A DNA stretch of 64,000 nt. Origin: Phycisphaerae bacterium (lineage in GTDB: Bacteria > Planctomycetota > Phycisphaerae > UBA1845 > Fen-1342). The notes under the pieces are model-generated. The model was not told where the DNA came from and did not search any database. It was given only the letters and a program-made list of their open reading frames with translations. The stretch covers positions 96,001 to 160,000 of the forward strand of contig JASFQK010000002.1 in assembly GCA_050115495.1 (NCBI GenBank). Direction: 5' to 3'. Within the stretch, counting starts at the first letter, position 1. The number at the start of each line of letters is the position of its first letter. Positions 38,854 to 46,022 of this stretch are shown piece by piece. Both the position numbers and the translations under genes were made by a program.

Positions 38854-40536
38854 TCATCCCATGCAGCCGGGCTCGAGCTTCTCGAAGAGGATCGCCGGCT
38901 CGGCCAGCGCGTGCCCGGCGGGCAGCGGGGCCGGCACTTCCCAGTGTATCTCGTCGGCGGGCTGCCCGAGCATGCCCAGCAGCCGACGGGCGGCCCCGGG
39001 CATGAACGGGTAGATCATCACGGCCAGGTGTTGCACCGCGTGGATGCAGGTGGCGATGGTGGCAGCGCAAGCCGGCAGATCTTCCTTCCGCGTTCGCCAG
39101 GGCTCTCGGAGACTGAAGTGTTCGTTGCCGAGGCGGGCGTAGCTCATCATCTCTTCGAGGGCGGCCCGGTAGCGGTGCCCCTCGATGTGCGCGCCGACGC
39201 GGGCCAGGGCCTCGCCGCCACGGGCGATATGGGCCCGGTCCTGGTCGGTCTGGGCGTCGGCGGACGGAACGCGGCCTTCGAAGTAGCGGACGGCGAAGGC
39301 CAGCGTGCGGTTGATGAAGTTGCCGAGGGCGGCGACGAGTTCGCTGTTGTTGCGCTGGACGAAATCAGCCGGGTCGAAGGCGGTGCGGGCCGTCTCCGGG
39401 GCGATGGCGGTCAGGTAGTAGCGCAGGGCGTCGGCGTCGAAACGCTTGAGGTACTCCTCGATCCAGACGGGGGAGTCCTCGGGTGTGCGGCTCTTGCTGA
39501 CCTTTTCGTCCTCGCCGCCGAGGCGGAAGTTGACGAAGTTGTTGGCAACGACCGCGTGCGGAAGCTGGTGCCGGCCGTCGGCCATGAGCATCGCCGGCCA
39601 GATCAGGGCGTGAAAGACCGTATTGTCCTCGCCGATGAAGTGCGTGATGTGCGTTTCGGGGTCGCACCACCACTTCTCGTATTCCTGCCAGTTGCCGGCG
39701 GTGTCCTCGCAGAGCTGGGCGGTGAACGAGATGTAGCCGATCGGGGCGTCGAACCAGACGAAGAGCACCTTGCCGGTAGCGTCGGGATCATCGAGCGGGA
39801 CGGGGATGCCCCACGAGATGTCGCGGGTCATGGAGCGCTCGGGCAGTCCCTGCTTGATCTGGCCGAGGGCGAAGTTCAGCACGTGTGGGCGCCACTGGCC
39901 CTGCTTCGATTCGAGCCACTCGCGCAGGGGTTGCTCGAACTTGTGCAGGCTGAGGTGCCAGTGGGTCGTTTCGCGGACGATGGCCGGCACGCCGGTGATC
40001 TGGCTGACCGGTTCGATGAGCAGCAGGGGGTCGATCATCTGCCCGCAGTTGTCGCACTGGTCGCCGGTGGCGCCGGGCGTGCGGCAGTGGTGGCAGGTGC
40101 CGCGGACATAGCGGTCGGGGAGGAAGCGCTCGGCCTGCGGGTCATAGAGCTGCTTGGTGCGGAGCTTGGTGAAGAAGCCCTGCTCGTGGATGCGGCTGAA
40201 GAATTCCTGACTGAACCGCTCGTGCATCTGCTGGTAGCCGGGCTGGTGCGTGCCGCCGTAGACGTCGAACTCGACGCGCAGGCCGGCGAAATCACGAAGC
40301 TGCCGGTCGTGAAATTCGGTGGAGATGTCCTGGGGCTGTCGCTTGGACTTCACGGCGGCGATCTCGATGGCCACGCCGTTGTCATCGCTGCCGCAGATGA
40401 AACGCACCTCGCGGCCACAGGCCCGCAGGTAGCGGACGAAAATGTCGGCCGGCAGGTACGCGCCGGCTATATGGCCGACATGCAGGCGGCCGTTTGAATA
40501 GGGCAATCCCGCCGTTACCAGATATCGACTGGGCAT
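38854..40536 (-). CDS. metG: Methionine--tRNA ligase (no C-terminal tRNA-binding appendix)
   Basis: PYSNGRLHVGH, Zn-knuckle CxxC pairs, VWFDAPIGY, KVSKS. Confidence 0.95.
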   Translation of the reverse strand: MPSRYLVTAGLPYSNGRLHVGHIAGAYLPADIFVRYLRACGREVRFICGSDDNGVAIEIAAVKSKRQPQDISTEFHDRQLRDFAGLRVEFDVYGGTHQPGYQQMHERFSQEFFSRIHEQGFFTKLRTKQLYDPQAERFLPDRYVRGTCHHCRTPGATGDQCDNCGQMIDPLLLIEPVSQITGVPAIVRETTHWHLSLHKFEQPLREWLESKQGQWRPHVLNFALGQIKQGLPERSMTRDISWGIPVPLDDPDATGKVLFVWFDAPIGYISFTAQLCEDTAGNWQEYEKWWCDPETHITHFIGEDNTVFHALIWPAMLMADGRHQLPHAVVANNFVNFRLGGEDEKVSKSRTPEDSPVWIEEYLKRFDADALRYYLTAIAPETARTAFDPADFVQRNNSELVAALGNFINRTLAFAVRYFEGRVPSADAQTDQDRAHIARGGEALARVGAHIEGHRYRAALEEMMSYARLGNEHFSLREPWRTRKEDLPACAATIATCIHAVQHLAVMIYPFMPGAARRLLGMLGQPADEIHWEVPAPLPAGHALAEPAILFEKLEPGCMG

Positions 40537-40572: not shown

Positions 40573-40601
40573 ATGGTACGCACCGTGGCGGCGGTCTGCA
40601 A
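40573..40601 (-). promoter_or_regulatory. sigma70-type promoter of metG
   Basis: TTGCAG-N17-TACCAT. Confidence 0.6.
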
Positions 40602-40752: not shown

Positions 40753-40863
40753 CTAGGCGATGAGGTCGGTGCTACCCGACAGGTACCACCAGATGACGAC
40801 GGCGCCAACGGCGATCCAAACCCAGGACCACCATCCGCTGAAGATCGGCAATTCGTTAATCAT
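40753..40863 (-). CDS. Small Trp-rich membrane peptide P1 (36 aa) MINELPIFSGWWSWVWIAVGAVVIWWYLSGSTDLIA
   Basis: GGAGG SD 6 nt upstream; promoter TTGGCG-N17-TACCAT at 40978-41006; homologous to P2 and P3. Confidence 0.75.
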   Translation of the reverse strand: MINELPIFSGWWSWVWIAVGAVVIWWYLSGSTDLIA

Positions 40864-41036
40864 CACATTCCTCCATTGAATGCGAAGCCACTCGCCCGAG
40901 CCCGCCCACCGCAGGCGGGATCGGCGGCAGCAGGGCTCCGTGCCGCACGCGGCACCACGGTGCATCCTGCGCTAAACATGGTACGCGACGGGCGACAGCG
41001 CGCCAACGCCGCGGCGGCGGGCGGGGCCGGGTGAAG

Positions 41037-41088
41037 AAAAAAGGCACGCGCCGATTCGCCGTCAGGCGACGGCTGATCGACGCGTACC
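41037..41088 (-). terminator. Long-stem terminator of unit P2
   Basis: GGTACGCGTCGAT..GCCGTC/GACGGC..ATCGGCGCGTGCC then TTTTTT. Confidence 0.75.
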
Positions 41089-41129
41089 GTCGGCGCCGCC
41101 GAAGCGGCGCGATGCTCGTTCGGCTGGCT

Positions 41130-41216
41130 TTACAGGAGGTTCTGCCCGGTGAGCAGGAACCACACCACCACGATGCCGCCGACAACCACGAGCCACCACC
41201 ACCAGTTGCTGAACAT
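41130..41216 (-). CDS. Small Trp-rich membrane peptide P2 (28 aa) MFSNWWWWLVVVGGIVVVWFLLTGQNLL
   Basis: GGGAG SD 7 nt upstream; promoter TTGCAC-N17-TAATAT at 41375-41403; absent from the ORF track. Confidence 0.75.
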   Translation of the reverse strand: MFSNWWWWLVVVGGIVVVWFLLTGQNLL

Positions 41217-41454
41217 CGAAACACTCCCTGCAATCTTGTACCACTCGCCTCGGCCCCCGCCGCGCTGACGGGGTAACACCGAGCCGCGATTCACGATGAG
41301 ATAGAACACCGGACGTGCCGGCGGAGCCGCGAACGACCCACATTCGGGCAGGCCGGCCGCCGATTCGCCAGAAAATATTACCCAACCGGCAAAGAACGTG
41401 CAATGGGTGGAAGGCCGGCAAGGTTACCGCCCGGGGGCGTGCCCCGCGGGGGCC

Positions 41455-41502
41455 AAAAAGGACGCGTCGAGCAATTGCCCACTGGCAGTTGATCGACGCG
41501 TC
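41455..41502 (-). terminator. Long-stem terminator of unit P3
   Basis: GACGCGTCGA/TCGACGCGTC outer stem plus inner stem, then CTTTTT. Confidence 0.75.
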
Positions 41503-41550
41503 GGGTGTTCGCGCCGCAGGAGCGGCGCGACGCCAGGTCAGGATGCGGCA

Positions 41551-41631
41551 CTAGGCAGCGAGCAGCCAGTAGGCCACGAGGAAAATGCCGCCGAAAATCA
41601 ACCACATCCACCAGTTGCCGAAGAAATCCAT
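41551..41631 (-). CDS. Small Trp-rich membrane peptide P3 (26 aa) MDFFGNWWMWLIFGGIFLVAYWLLAA
   Basis: GGAGAG SD; promoter TTGACG-N17-TAGCGT at 41711-41739; absent from the ORF track. Confidence 0.75.
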   Translation of the reverse strand: MDFFGNWWMWLIFGGIFLVAYWLLAA

Positions 41632-41771
41632 GTTCTCTCTCCAAACATGTAACGAACCACTCGCTCCGGTCCCGCCGCGCCGACGGGTCTAACCTCGGCG
41701 ATTACTAAACACGCTAGTCACGCAGAGCCTCGCCGTCAACAGGTCGAGGCCACAAACTGCGCGCGCCTCCC

Positions 41772-41835
41772 AAAAAGAGAGCCCCGTCCGGCGATTAGCG
41801 CCTCCGGCCAATTCGCCGGAGTGTCGAGACGGGGC
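41772..41835 (-). terminator. Terminator-like structure of unit P4
   Basis: GCCCCGTC/GACGGGGC outer stem, inner CGGCGA/TCGCCG, then TCTCTTTTT. Confidence 0.6.
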
Positions 41836-41924
41836 ACCGTCAAGTGCCACCCGCGCGTTCCGCGGGGGGCTACCTGACGGACCTTGACTGGCGCGACACT
41901 TGTCGTCGCGCTTCGACGGTTGCT

Positions 41925-42005
41925 TTAGAAGAACGCGTTGTACGCCCACACGCCGGTGAACGCCGCGACCGCCGCAACCAAGAAATCAACGAACCAAGTC
42001 CACAT
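41925..42005 (-). CDS. Small hydrophobic peptide P4 (26 aa) MWTWFVDFLVAAVAAFTGVWAYNAFF
   Basis: AGGAGA SD; same leader hairpin as P2/P3; -35 TTGACG at 42104-42109 with a weaker -10. Confidence 0.7.
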   Translation of the reverse strand: MWTWFVDFLVAAVAAFTGVWAYNAFF

Positions 42006-42292
42006 CGTGTCTCTCCTGTGCAGATCTGATTCGTGTCCGTCCTGCCGCGCCGACAGGTCGACCCGGACACAGTTGCTATCATTTACGCTACTTACGAGAA
42101 TGTCGTCAAGGACTGCGCCCCCTTGTTTTTCGTATATTCTGGAGCTTGTTGGACCGCGGTTTGCTACGTCCCGCCGGCAGTCGCGACCCTTTTCTCCCTC
42201 GCGCATCGGCCCGCAGCCGGTCGCCAGGGCCGTTTTGCAGCGCCCGCCGTGCGGCGACCACGTAACCCGCTCCGCCCGCACCGGAGACCCAT

Positions 42293-43207
42293 ATGCCCGA
42301 AGAAAGACGGAAACTCGTCATCGGCGTCGGCGAACTGCTCTGGGACTGTTTTCCCGATTGGCGCCGCCCAGGCGGGGCTCCGGCGAACGTGGCCTTCCAC
42401 GCCAGCCAGCTCGGTCTGGCCGGGGCGATTTGTTCCGGCGTGGGTACGGACGCCGGCGGTGACGAACTCGTCCGCTACGTCGGCGAACGCGGTCTGGACA
42501 CGCGCTGGATCCAGCGCGACCCGCATCATCCCACTGGCACGGTCACCGTCGACACGACGCGGCCCGAGCACCCGACGTACGTGATCCACGAAAACGTGGC
42601 CTGGGACTTCCTGCAATTCGACGAGCCGTCGGCCGAGCTGTTTGCCGCCGCCGCCGTCGTCTGCTACGGCACGCTCGCCCAACGCTGCGCTGCGAGCCGG
42701 GAGACGATTCGGCGGGCGCTGACGGCGGCGGAGCAGGCGCTGCGCGTGTACGACGTGAACCTGCGCCCACCATGGTACACCGCGGAGATCGTCGCCGAGT
42801 CGCTGCGTCTCGCGCACGTCGTGAAGCTCAACGCGGATGAGGTGGGGGAACTAGGCAGACTGCTCTCATTGCCGGCGGATCCGCCGGAGGGATTTGCCGC
42901 TGCGCTAAGGGAGCGCTACGGCGTGCGGCTGGTGTGCGTTACGCGCGGGGGACGCGGGTGTCTGCTGCTGTCGGAGACGGAACGGGTGGACGTAGCGGGC
43001 AGGCCGGTGGAGGTTGTGGACGCGGTCGGTGCCGGGGACGCGTTCACCGCCGCCCTGAGCTACGGGCTCGTGCAGGGTTGGCCGGTAGCGCGGGCGGCGC
43101 ACCTGGCGAACGAGGTCGGCGCGCTCGTGGCGGGACAAGCCGGTGCGATGCCGGTGCTGGGCGAGGCGCTGGCGGATGCGTTGCGGCGGTGTGCTCCTGG
43201 TACGTAG
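42293..43207 (+). CDS. PfkB family carbohydrate kinase (fructokinase-like)
   Basis: GELLWD, PGGAPANVA, DVNLR, VKLNADE, VDAVGAGDAF. Confidence 0.92.
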   Translation: MPEERRKLVIGVGELLWDCFPDWRRPGGAPANVAFHASQLGLAGAICSGVGTDAGGDELVRYVGERGLDTRWIQRDPHHPTGTVTVDTTRPEHPTYVIHENVAWDFLQFDEPSAELFAAAAVVCYGTLAQRCAASRETIRRALTAAEQALRVYDVNLRPPWYTAEIVAESLRLAHVVKLNADEVGELGRLLSLPADPPEGFAAALRERYGVRLVCVTRGGRGCLLLSETERVDVAGRPVEVVDAVGAGDAFTAALSYGLVQGWPVARAAHLANEVGALVAGQAGAMPVLGEALADALRRCAPGT

Positions 43208-43222: not shown

Positions 43223-44524
43223 TCAGTCGTTGCTGTCGGGCGGCGGCGACCCCGGTGTGGTGGTCGCGGGCGTGTGGCCGAACAGCTCGTCGAGGTGTCG
43301 GACGTCGACGTCGATGGTGTGGTCGCCCTGGAGGCAGAGGTAGGCGGCCACGTACGAAGCGGCACTCCAGGCCTGGTAGGCTTTGCCCATGGGGCGGCCG
43401 GTTTGGCCGTGAGCCCATTCGGTGAATTCCCAACGACGCTCGATTCCGTCGCGGCAGAGCCGGGCCAGGCGATGCAGGGCGTGTTCGGCTTCGGCTCGCT
43501 GGTCGAGGCGCAGCAGGAAGCGCACCCACAGTCCGCCGACGAACGGCCAGATGCCGCCGTTGTGGTAGTGGTGGGGGAGGTTCTGGAGATTGACGAGGAA
43601 GTAGGCCCGCCAGTCCGGGGCGCCGGGACTGACGGCCGGGTAGAGCACGCGCACCGGATAGGGCCGGTCGACGCCGACCTGTCGCAGGAAACGCCAGACG
43701 CGCAGCGCCCGTTCCTCGTCGATCACGCCGTACAGGAAGGCGATGAGGTTGGCGAACACGTCGCAGCGCCAACTGAAGCCGAAGGGCGTGATCTGGGCGA
43801 GCAGGTAGCGGGCCTTGCCCAGGCTGAACTGCGTTTCAGCGAAGGACTCGACGCTGTCGCGGACGGTGGCCGGTGTGGGCCAGAACTGCTTGTTGATCAG
43901 AGAGCGGATGCGCTGGGCCCGCTCGGCGTAGCGGGCGACCTCGCCGTCGCCGAGGCGACGCAGCTTGACGAAGTCGACGTTGGCCCGGTACCAGAGCACC
44001 TCGTCGTAGAGGACGTTGTACGAGCGGGGGAAGATGTCCATCCAGTCGGAGGCTTCGGGCACTTCGAGCAGGCCGCAGTTGTTCGAGTCGTGGGCCCGCA
44101 GCCATTTCACCGTGCGGTGAATCGCCCGGAAGTAGCGGTTGAGGAAAGCGGTGTCGCCGGTGGCCTGCACGTAGTTCCAGGCGGCGATGATGACCCACAT
44201 GGGGCCGTCGATGCCGGCGATGTTCCCCGTGCCGCCGTAGACCGGCCGGCGGGTTTCGACCTCGACGTAGTTGGGCAGGTGGCCGTCGGGCGACTGGGCG
44301 TCGAGCAGGGTTTTGAGCGAGCGGCGGCCGCAGGCGGTGAGCTCCGGATCGCGCAGCGGCAGCGACCACATCAGCGTGATGGCCGCGTCGCGGGCCCAGA
44401 CGGCGCGGTAGTTGCTGCCGGCCTCCTCGTCATGCTCCATCGAGCAGGCGGTGAAGCCGCGCTTGGACACGTTCATGCGCAGCACGTCCTGGGCCCGTGC
44501 AAACGCTTCGTCGATCAGGTTCAT
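43223..44524 (-). CDS. (alpha/alpha)6-barrel glycoside hydrolase (GH100 invertase-like / amylo-1,6-glucosidase-like)
   Basis: NYRAVWARD, DWMD, YHNGGIWPFVGG, QAWSAASY. Confidence 0.8.
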   Translation of the reverse strand: MNLIDEAFARAQDVLRMNVSKRGFTACSMEHDEEAGSNYRAVWARDAAITLMWSLPLRDPELTACGRRSLKTLLDAQSPDGHLPNYVEVETRRPVYGGTGNIAGIDGPMWVIIAAWNYVQATGDTAFLNRYFRAIHRTVKWLRAHDSNNCGLLEVPEASDWMDIFPRSYNVLYDEVLWYRANVDFVKLRRLGDGEVARYAERAQRIRSLINKQFWPTPATVRDSVESFAETQFSLGKARYLLAQITPFGFSWRCDVFANLIAFLYGVIDEERALRVWRFLRQVGVDRPYPVRVLYPAVSPGAPDWRAYFLVNLQNLPHHYHNGGIWPFVGGLWVRFLLRLDQRAEAEHALHRLARLCRDGIERRWEFTEWAHGQTGRPMGKAYQAWSAASYVAAYLCLQGDHTIDVDVRHLDELFGHTPATTTPGSPPPDSND

Positions 44525-44684
44525 GCCGCTCGCACTCCGCGGCTGGGGTGCCGAATAGGCCGGGCCGCCCCGGCGCGACCGGCATCATAACCGAAGACGC
44601 CCGCGCGGCGTGGACCGCGAGGGCGCCATGATGGATCGTGGGTGTATCCGCGTGCGCAGATTCTGCCGGCTGGTCGGGCGGGGG

Positions 44685-46022
44685 CTAGTCGGCGGCGGCG
44701 ACGAGCTCGCCGGCCAGGAGCTCGTCAGTCTCACGCGCTTCCCCGCGGTCTTTTCCCGACGTCCGCATCCGAAAGCCCTGCAGGATGCTGAGCATCTGCT
44801 GGGCGATACCCATCCAGGTAAACGCCGCCCGGGCCTTCTGCGAGCCGTACTTGGCCAATTGGCCGGCGATGGGCGGGTGTTGCAGAATCTGGTAGATGGC
44901 GTGGCCGAACGCCTCCGGATCGAACGGGTTGGCGTACAGCGCCTCGAGCCCCCAGCGGACCTGCTCCCATAGCCCACCTTCCGTCGTTACGACGGCCGGC
45001 GTGCCGCAGGCCATCGCTTCCACCGCTGTCATGCCGAACGGCTCGTAGCGGCTGGACAGGGCGAAGACGTCGGCCAGGCGATACCAGTCGGGCAGCTCCT
45101 CGTCCGGGATGTAGTCGTGGAAGTGCACGCGGTCCGCGATCTTCAGCTCGCGGGCGATCGTGCGCAGCTCTTCGATCTGCTCCTGCTCTCGTTCCGTCGG
45201 TTGCGTCGAGCCGATCGCCAGGATCAGCTTCGCATCCTCGATCCGCTGGAAGACGACCGGCATGGCCTGTATCAACAGGTCGTAGCCCTTGTTGTGAGCC
45301 ATGCGCCCCACGGCCAGCACGATGCGGCCCTCCTGGCCGTACTGCCGCTTGATGCCCTCACGCGATGCCCGCGAGATCGGGAAGAAACGCGAGTCGTCAT
45401 AGCCCGGCGGCACGACGTAGATTTTCTCCCGCGGCGTGTCGTAGGCGCCGTTCGTCAGGATGTCGCGCTGCACGGGCGTCGTCGCGACAACCGCGTCGCA
45501 CTCGTCGTAGATGACCTTCTCTTCGCGGATCCGGCGGCGGAAGTTGTACTTGCGCTCGAGGTCCGCTGGCTCGCCGTCCATGTTGTCCCGTTTCCACGAG
45601 CCGATCGAGTGCGGGACGTGGACGTGCGGGATGGACAGGCGGTTGGAGAGGGCCTGGCCGGCCAGACCGGCATCCCAATAATGGCTCACGATGAACGAAT
45701 AGCGCAGCCGCTTCGAGTAGATGTGCTGACGGACGTTCTCCACCCACTCGGGGATGTGGTCGCACAGCGTTTCCTTCGGGATGAACTCCTTGCCGCCGCA
45801 GGGGAAGCGCAGCACACGCATGCGCTCGCCGACCTCCTCGACCGCCGGCTGATCCTCGAAGCGGCGGGTGAGCACGTCGACGTGGTAGCCCATGCGGGCC
45901 AGGCACTTGCTCAGCTCGAGGACGTAGACGACCTGGCCACCGGTATCGGGCTTGCCCAGTTCCGGCTCGGCCGCGACGTACCCGTGGGTGGAGATCATCA
46001 TGATCCGTTGTTTGGTGGACAT
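44685..46022 (-). CDS. GT4 mannosylfructose-phosphate synthase-like / sucrose-phosphate synthase family
   Basis: ISTHGY..DTGGQVVYVLEL, SHYWDAG, SSRYEPFGMTAVEAMACG; closely resembles MfpsA as I recall it. Confidence 0.85.
   Translation of the reverse strand: MSTKQRIMMISTHGYVAAEPELGKPDTGGQVVYVLELSKCLARMGYHVDVLTRRFEDQPAVEEVGERMRVLRFPCGGKEFIPKETLCDHIPEWVENVRQHIYSKRLRYSFIVSHYWDAGLAGQALSNRLSIPHVHVPHSIGSWKRDNMDGEPADLERKYNFRRRIREEKVIYDECDAVVATTPVQRDILTNGAYDTPREKIYVVPPGYDDSRFFPISRASREGIKRQYGQEGRIVLAVGRMAHNKGYDLLIQAMPVVFQRIEDAKLILAIGSTQPTEREQEQIEELRTIARELKIADRVHFHDYIPDEELPDWYRLADVFALSSRYEPFGMTAVEAMACGTPAVVTTEGGLWEQVRWGLEALYANPFDPEAFGHAIYQILQHPPIAGQLAKYGSQKARAAFTWMGIAQQMLSILQGFRMRTSGKDRGEARETDELLAGELVAAAD

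Follow-up and report, generated by a model that had tools for sequence, protein, structure and literature searches.

In the stretch of DNA analysed here, a 64,000-nucleotide section of a Phycisphaerae bacterium contig (the window), the minus strand between the divergent pfkB gene (42293-43207) and metG (38854-40536) holds an array of four units, P4 to P1. Each unit consists of a leader hairpin, a GGAG located 6-9 nt 5' of an ATG, and a hydrophobic open reading frame (ORF) of 26-36 amino acids, and in all four a long hairpin with a U-run lies 50-110 nt past the stop codon. From P4 towards metG, the features are:

42081-42109, minus strand: predicted P4 promoter-like site, TTGACG-17-GTAAAT, 14.0 bits with the family promoter matrix
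42033-42070, minus strand: P4 leader hairpin (two stems separated by an asymmetric loop, GGCGC terminal loop), from folding and the covariance model
41925-42005, minus strand: P4 ORF, 26 amino acids, one predicted transmembrane (TM) helix
41772-41900, minus strand: P4 3' region with two long hairpins, the second (41772-41835) terminator-like with a U-rich tail
41711-41739, minus strand: predicted P3 promoter-like site, TTGACG-17-TAGCGT, 13.9 bits with the family promoter matrix
41661-41701, minus strand: P3 leader hairpin (41657-41701 with the trailing GCGAGUGG), from folding and the covariance model
41551-41631, minus strand: P3 ORF, 26 amino acids, Trp-rich, one predicted TM helix, within an RNA-run contig
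41455-41502, minus strand: P3 terminator-like long hairpin with U-run
41375-41403, minus strand: possible distal P2 promoter, TTGCAC-17-TAATAT, read by eye and not listed by the matrix scan at its 8-bit cut-off
41245-41289, minus strand: P2 leader hairpin with AGCGC loop (41241-41289 with the trailing GCGAGUGG), from folding and the covariance model
41130-41216, minus strand: P2 ORF, 28 amino acids, Trp-rich, one predicted TM helix
41037-41088, minus strand: P2 terminator-like long hairpin with U-run
40978-41006, minus strand: weak predicted P1 promoter-like site, TTGGCG-17-TACCAT, 9.5 bits
40892-40928, minus strand: P1 leader hairpin with diverged apex and GCGGU loop (40888-40928 with the trailing GCGAGUGG), from folding and the covariance model
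40753-40863, minus strand: P1 ORF, 36 amino acids, Trp-rich, one predicted TM helix
40644-40695, minus strand: P1 terminator-like long hairpin with U-run
40573-40601: metG's own promoter-like site, read by eye
38854-40536, minus strand: metG, methionyl-tRNA synthetase (Pfam tRNA-synt_1g, E 4e-131), the conserved downstream neighbour

Similarity between the P2 and P3 units is 71% across 107 nt. In P1 the conserved apex sequence has been lost, and the 7-nt loop can close by a U.G pair to give 7 bp and a GCGGU loop. A first-pass annotation of this DNA had quoted the motif sequences of all four units correctly on the minus strand, as it had the lower stems that it listed; it gave none for P3, where that stem is weak (UCGC/GCGA plus GGU/ACC). 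The invariant sequence that it described behind the hairpin in P1-P3 is present there, with GCGAGUGG located 13-14 nt 5' of the GGAG, but its GCGAGUG recurs in only 25 of 65 hairpins across the family. A built-in sigma70 scan, whose consensus is stricter than the promoter-like sites listed above, found no promoter in the window.

Several other features of this region were observed. The terminator-like hairpins of the Trp-rich units (41455-41502, 41037-41088 and their relatives) lie about 40-55 nt past the stop codon and have in common a long inner segment and an arm, RCGCGYCGAY, that is rare elsewhere (2 of 155 other terminator-like sites of the genome). For one of the P4 3' hairpins (41772-41900), an Rfam miRNA model scored weakly and at chance level. 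According to Pfam, genes for a family 4 glycosyltransferase, an invertase-like glycoside hydrolase and the PfkB kinase (43223-46022 and 42293-43207) adjoin a MarR regulator, and together they look like a cluster for sucrose-type sugar synthesis and breakdown. ARAGORN made two tRNA-SeC calls in the same genome.

The stretches 41195-41353 and 41531-41986 each have an identical contig in a wetland metatranscriptome (run X2). A third contig there comes from a relative; it agrees with the P3 leader along 32 nt and then runs on into its own Shine-Dalgarno sequence (SD) and ATG. These contigs come from a single run that carries no information on strand, ends or level and has no silent-stretch control, and they could derive from DNA carry-over; stretches that they leave uncovered are uninformative. 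The longer one crosses the P4 terminator, both P4 3' hairpins and the P3 promoter, while the shorter one reaches 41353, beyond a proximal P2 start.

Structure and covariation of the leader hairpin

BLAST of the array against 72 genomes of its family recovered the leader in other genera, and we built an RNA covariance model from 30 aligned leaders picked by their apex sequence and a following short ORF. In the consensus hairpin, a lower stem of about 9 bp is separated from an upper stem of 6-7 bp by an asymmetric internal loop, which has about 5-7 nt on its 5' side and 0-1 nt on its 3' side and varies in both sequence and length. The terminal loop is GGCGC in 55 of 65 hairpins. A strict core pattern occurs three times in the 5.97-Mb genome, always inside the array, and at E < 0.3 the covariance model found only the four array copies there, all four of which are training sequences.

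Folding of single leaders was not significantly better than that of shuffled sequences (z = 0.12, -0.51, -0.22 and -1.82 for P4, P3, P2 and P1), so the structural case rests on comparison. In the training alignment 85.6% of the cells are paired, against 38-52% in slid controls. Both sides change in 10 of the 15 pairs, a level that none of 500 shuffles reached in a control that makes no correction for kinship. For the lower stem we also exchanged arms among 35 non-redundant hairpins of less than 55% identity, a set whose model-selected members bias the result upward: hairpins with their own arms gave -13.9 kcal/mol, compared to -8.7 ± 0.45 kcal/mol for permuted arms (0 of 20,000 permutations). 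All of these structure tests are only partly corrected for kinship, and model-selected hits lean towards pairing.

The upper stem combines variable and fixed positions. Pairs 4-7 covary, with C-G, U-A, A-U, G-C and U.G forms all occurring, and pair 2 is U.G in 42 of the 65 hairpins, C-G in 22, U-A in one and C.A in none. Because the G of pair 2 is fixed, this distribution points to RNA wobble and not to symmetric half-sites in DNA. The central CG of the loop is found in 63 of 65 hairpins, under an anchoring rule that gave CG a small bonus. The earlier claim that the motif is better conserved than the peptide extends to the whole family, since the apex 13-mer YGYC-GGCGC-GGCR is exact in 53 of 65 hairpins compared to a mean column identity of 18% among 31 peptides. 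In contrast, the suggestion of a small-RNA target acting through CCACUCGC finds no support here: GCGAGUG is missing from 40 of the 65 hairpins and is half paired, with its GCGA forming the 3' arm of the lower stem in the consensus, and so does not offer an unpaired target common to all hairpins. The RNA search that the same annotation had recommended would be uninformative, because the 8-mer occurs 394 times in the genome.

Taken together, the alignments show a leader element with a covarying structure, a characteristic position, an invariant apex and a family-restricted spread. Judged by its pattern of substitutions, it has two parts: a lower stem in which pairing appears to matter and sequence is free, and an apex whose sequence appears to be held fixed. 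A shared protein target, the other partner proposed in the first-pass annotation, would fit such an apex.

Distribution of the unit and its peptides

A covariance-model search of genomes had been proposed as a check on the motif, and at E <= 0.05 our model matched 53 of the 72 family genomes, with covariation present. Re-scoring 62 loci gave 73 model hits, and by requiring a called short ORF we kept 61 units in 50 genomes. The 12 hits dropped for want of such an ORF all scored at or below 31.6 bits (rows 50, 53, 57, 58, 61, 62, 65, 66, 67, 69, 70 and 73), and two of them, rows 70 and 73, are probably real units. The RNA model includes the SD and ATG and takes no account of ORF length or hydrophobicity; all 19 of the held-out hits within its top 49 precede a short hydrophobic ORF. 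A peptide profile added five genomes outside the RNA-selected locus set (G052, G018, G057, G058 and G044), each with a TTGAC-like site, which reads TTGAC in four and CTGAC in L313, as well as a leader hairpin that can fold and has an RRCGC loop. Two of these hairpins have new compensated upper stems. The unit is present in 55 of the 72 genomes, 50 through the RNA model and five through the peptide alone. These homologues, together with the covariation, support the earlier proposal that the motif is probably a functional cis RNA element, and it always stands in the leader of a small hydrophobic ORF.

Outside the family, we found no convincing match in a class sample of 151 genomes or in order samples of 151 and 201 genomes. 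The best out-of-family match to the RNA model had an E-value of 4e-5; four weak ones were inspected, none with a short TM ORF. Five weak out-of-family peptide matches were obtained, and the two inspected both lie inside long ORFs. A pattern scan of one of the 64 parts of a metagenome collection yielded at least 120 loci, and none of the 80 tested was a full-length match to the model, indicating that the pattern was too loose. The same kind of scan across a 185,579-genome collection gave 27 hits, 13 of them full-length and the other 14 weak, partial or absent. All 13 come from records with Planctomycetota, Planctomycetales, Phycisphaerae or Phycisphaerales in the title, and these genomes are apparently those already in our family set. 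Viral contigs gave three hits, none full-length.

The genomic setting is also shared. In the same genus, related small ORFs lie upstream of metG in four of six genomes, three of them with the hairpin in view. The unit is present in two to four copies in this genus, and tandem copies also occur in a few others; most of the 50 loci have a single model hit. metG follows within 139-617 nt in 27 of these loci. Of the 48 loci scanned, 16 are preceded by a same-strand SAM methyltransferase gene (PF10672) and 10 by a divergent GT2 glycosyltransferase gene. Some tandem copies lack the hairpin or its apex (in G006, G004, G009, G001 and G005). We conclude that the leader-peptide locus is vertically inherited and has been tandemly expanded in this genus.

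A few loci depart from this layout. Extra small TM ORFs with no promoter or hairpin of their own follow the first unit at L003 and L006 (G006, G004), L018 (G009), L036 (G069) and L049 (G078), which suggests peptide operons, and G009 encodes two near-identical peptides. Upstream of metG at L004 and L005 (G002, G003) no peptide array was seen; these loci instead hold short tandem repeats and an ORF rich in Asn-Asp-Asn repeats and Cys. At L017 (G022) a repeat-rich intergenic region with several direct repeats replaces the peptide unit. A weak model hit with a different apex at L159:2301-2388 (G007) precedes an 88-residue lipoprotein-like ORF; it stands outside our counts and is probably unrelated.

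The peptides of the 61 units are 23-65 residues long (median 35), and 59 have a TM-like segment, defined as a 17-residue hydropathy of at least 1.5. Net charge is zero in 29, and 26 have neither Lys nor Arg. Two types can be distinguished: Trp-rich, signal-less peptides such as P1-P3, and Gly-rich peptides with a WRFF-like end, in which a signal is optional. By a simple rule, 9 of the 61 have a signal-peptide-like N-terminus, with basic residues, a hydrophobic stretch and an A[LM]AQ site. Between close pairs, 34 codon changes are synonymous and 33 non-synonymous, and third positions account for 44 of 80 base changes. For a close relative in DNA run X5, among the changes listed, third positions account for 6 of 7 in P1 and 5 of 6 in P2. 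Searches of 31 peptides against Pfam, PHROG and NCBIfam found no shared family, with no model matching more than two members, and the ESM Atlas returned only unnamed leads below 0.9 or nothing. A homologue search with an 18-member alignment recovered 15 proteins, and the named ones are hypothetical proteins from Phycisphaerales or Planctomycetes records.

N-termini that resemble signals, end in A[LM]AQ and lead into a Thr-rich stretch were seen at L074, L105, L153, L154, L163, L165, L067, L068, L313 and L322, and in sister lineages of the signal-bearing ORFs the ORF starts at or just past the A[LM]AQ site. A signal seems to have been gained or lost within one peptide family. Separately, we rejected Trp-sensing attenuation of metG by the leader peptides: Trp counts range from 0 to 8, metG is downstream in only 27 of 50 loci, and it has its own promoter-like site.

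Predicted transcription signals and the possible role of the leader

A promoter-like site of the form TTG[AC]C-16/18-NANNNT lies at a fixed distance from the hairpin in 47 of the 61 units, with a median of 13 nt from the end of the -10 box to the lower stem. If transcription starts 7 nt after the -10 box, a median of two unpaired 5' bases is predicted in 45 units, a pattern from which P1 and P2 differ. A promoter matrix found the sense site in 48 of 61 units, a circular result, as the matrix was trained on those sites. Among 489 promoter-like sites in the genome, the apex falls within the first 50 nt only at P3 and P4. On the antisense strand, no promoter-like site of at least 13 bits crosses the leader or ORF in any of the 61 units with a sigma70-type matrix, and the best scores there average 4.0, compared to 4.8 for shuffled sequences.

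The lower stem ends 10-22 nt 5' of the SD. Predicted base pairing between the ribosome binding site (RBS) and the hairpin has a mean probability of 0.036 and exceeds 0.2 in 3 of 61 units, and predicted RBS accessibility is 0.44 with the hairpin and 0.43 without it. Local structure leaves 26 of 61 SDs less than 0.3 unpaired, no more than with recoded ORFs (0.44). The hairpin is thus predicted to stay apart from the RBS, with no RBS switch. Prediction found no terminator within the leader, and we found no conserved 5'-3' pairing in the 61 units. Pairing between GCGAGUGG and the ORF was considered and rejected, with p <= 0.05 in 1 of 25. Leaders have a median folding energy of -25.3 kcal/mol compared to -18.9 kcal/mol for other predicted leaders in this genome; 15% of 40 background leaders are as stable.

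Our leading reading, which we hold tentatively and at slightly under even odds, is that the leader is a standing stabilising stem at the 5' end of a short mRNA, with an apex bound by some protein or RNA. Transcription from the sigma70-type site would begin a few bases 5' of the lower stem, to judge from the predicted start, and the stem would hide the 5' end from decay enzymes that need a single strand. Stabilisation of mRNA by 5' structure is described as established in E. coli and B. subtilis, and RppH and RNase E are described as requiring single-stranded 5' ends (PMC3997798). The apex could then serve as a recognition site that sets the level or the place of expression. The product would be a single-pass inner-membrane protein with its N-terminus outside, a topology that homologues with a cleavable signal-peptide-like leader suggest. 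In this genus the unit would have been amplified in tandem and its copies would have diverged, with loss of the apex in P1. Some observations count against a stabiliser. The P2 hairpin is intact, yet about 90 nt separate it from the only promoter visible upstream, and it would not then stand at the 5' end of its transcript; compared with background, the gain in leader stability is only moderate, and some tandem copies lack the hairpin or its apex. Furthermore, a plain stabiliser needs no fixed loop sequence, and this step leaves the apex unexplained. One long shot is that the apex is an mRNA address label, recognised by a factor restricted to the lineage or kissing a second copy by way of its invariant CG. 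In either case it would bring the mRNAs of a coat-like single-pass protein to the membrane for co-translation into an abundant family-specific lattice, and the RNA signal would have outlived a protein sequence that switched between signal-peptide and signal-less forms.

Several other explanations were weighed against a recognised 5' stabiliser. The units could be type I toxin mRNAs, encoding membrane-toxin peptides whose antitoxin RNA, acting in trans or made from another type of promoter, is seeded at the apex. Searches for such toxins have used as criteria an ORF below 70 amino acids with a single TM helix and a polar or aromatic C-terminus, repeated in tandem within one intergenic region and with sequence outside the ORF also shared (PMC2887945). 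The peptides here are 23-65 residues long with a hydrophobic 17-mer in 59 of 61, two to four copies occur in this genus, and the exposed invariant loop could seed pairing. Nevertheless, we think this unlikely: none of the 61 units has a sigma70-type antisense promoter-like site of at least 13 bits, folding predicts no RBS sequestration by the leader or by 5'-3' pairing, and the locus is syntenic and mostly single-copy, with metG downstream in 27 of 50 cases. In many loci the upstream ORF ends as close as about 70-130 nt from the leader, which would leave little room for a divergent antitoxin gene, and there are homologues with a signal-peptide-like N-terminus as well as 26 of 61 peptides without Lys or Arg. 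A switch sensing a small ligand, an ion or temperature, for example by guanidine-II-like kissing through the central CG, would account for the cis position and for a loop whose CG is kept in 63 of 65 hairpins, and SAM- or methionine-related neighbours (the methyltransferase upstream in 16 of 48 loci, metG downstream) are in keeping with it. However, each leader has one hairpin with a pentaloop and not two with ACGR tetraloops, the internal loop varies in sequence and length, no Rfam riboswitch matches, and neither an SD overlap nor a leader terminator is predicted that could act as an expression platform; we find such a switch quite unlikely. Distinctly improbable, too, is a processing signal of the RNase III type, in which cleavage would set the mRNA level: the stem of about 9 bp, asymmetric loop and stem of 6-7 bp resemble such signals, but the fixed terminal-loop sequence is left unexplained.

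Three further readings were weighed. The apex might pair with the terminator arm CGCGYCG, as an antiterminator or a 5'-3' circularising arm, and so control read-through into the next gene or metG. This arm is apex-complementary, conserved in many Trp-rich units and rare among the terminators of the genome (2 of 155), and the strandless RNA-run contig 41531-41986 spans the P4 terminator and P3 promoter. Even so, the duplex of apex and 3' region is on a par with shuffled controls (-16.7 compared to -16.3, with p <= 0.05 in 5 of 61), the apex is retained in lineages that lack the arm, the loop change in P2 is uncompensated in its terminator, and metG has its own promoter-like site, which makes the idea very improbable. 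The palindromic core, whose spacing from the -35 box is almost constant, suggests a double-stranded DNA operator in the early transcribed region, read as the imperfect palindrome CCGYCG-N3-CGGCGG. The asymmetry of pair 2 (U.G 42, C-G 22, U-A 1, C.A 0) is that of RNA wobble, however, covariation extends to the outer arms beyond a variable internal loop, and the apex lies near only P3 and P4 among 489 promoter-like sites, so that there is no regulon; we judge an operator very unlikely indeed. Finally, the four copies are tandem paralogues, P2 and P3 being 71% alike over 107 nt, and their likeness could be neutral, left by recent duplication. That the element is kept and covaries in 55 of 72 family genomes from many genera, while the peptides diverge, makes this scarcely credible. 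With no RBS switch, antisense promoter-like site or apex-terminator pairing found, we regard the riboswitch, type I toxin-antitoxin and antitermination readings as weak.

Comparison with known systems

Rfam 15 gave five matches in the window, the best at E 0.23 and all far below the gathering threshold, and for 12 genome-collection loci (11 of them full-length model hits) a single match at E 3.7 that lies outside the motif. In the literature covered, which did not extend to subscription papers or the supplements of RNA-motif surveys (PMC2864571, PMC8632094), we found no paper on the leader motif or the peptides. We conclude that the element is real, family-restricted and, in the sources searched, undescribed. 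It comprises an RNA motif that Rfam 15 lacks, joined to a membrane micropeptide family for which Pfam, NCBIfam and PHROG have no model, at one syntenic locus across an uncultured planctomycete family. Since conservation is far higher in the RNA than in the protein, the RNA offers a handle for finding these unannotated genes, and its clean division into a lower stem constrained only in pairing and an apex constrained in sequence translates into a direct design for a partner search. A partner that proved to be a new localisation factor or RNA-binding protein would extend the sparse knowledge of post-transcriptional control in the Planctomycetota.

The layout of the peptides, with an optional signal, a short acidic or polar N-terminus, one TM helix and an aromatic and basic C-terminus, resembles that of inovirus major coat proteins such as M13 procoat and Pf3 coat. 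Unlike those coats, the peptides share no PHROG family, have no flanking phage genes and found no full-length match in the viral contigs scanned. At the ibs-sib, ldr-rdl and z3289/z3290 loci, short TM ORFs are described as lying in tandem within a single intergenic region and sharing structured flanks (PMC2887945), as here; the present locus differs from them in that no sigma70-type antisense promoter-like site was found and no RBS sequestration is predicted, in its syntenic and mostly single-copy distribution, and in its homologues with a signal-peptide-like N-terminus. Guanidine-II (mini-ykkC) elements, reported as two hairpins with ACGR tetraloops 7-40 nt apart (PMC5558903), resemble the leader in being short and G+C-rich with a conserved loop and central CG. 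Here, in contrast, there is a single hairpin with a GGCGC pentaloop (55 of 65), no SugE-like or carboxylase gene, no SD sequestration and no Rfam hit. The closest likeness we can draw is to the leaders of ompA and papA in E. coli and aprE in B. subtilis, which also place a stem-loop near the 5' end (a predicted one in our case) and off the RBS, on the mRNA of an envelope protein, and whose stabilising action our leader may share. Plain 5' stabilisers are not known to need an apex sequence fixed across a family, as the leader here has. We assign the hairpin to no named family, and our tentative view, held at a little below an even chance, is that it may act as a stabilising leader at the 5' end to which a recognition loop has been added.
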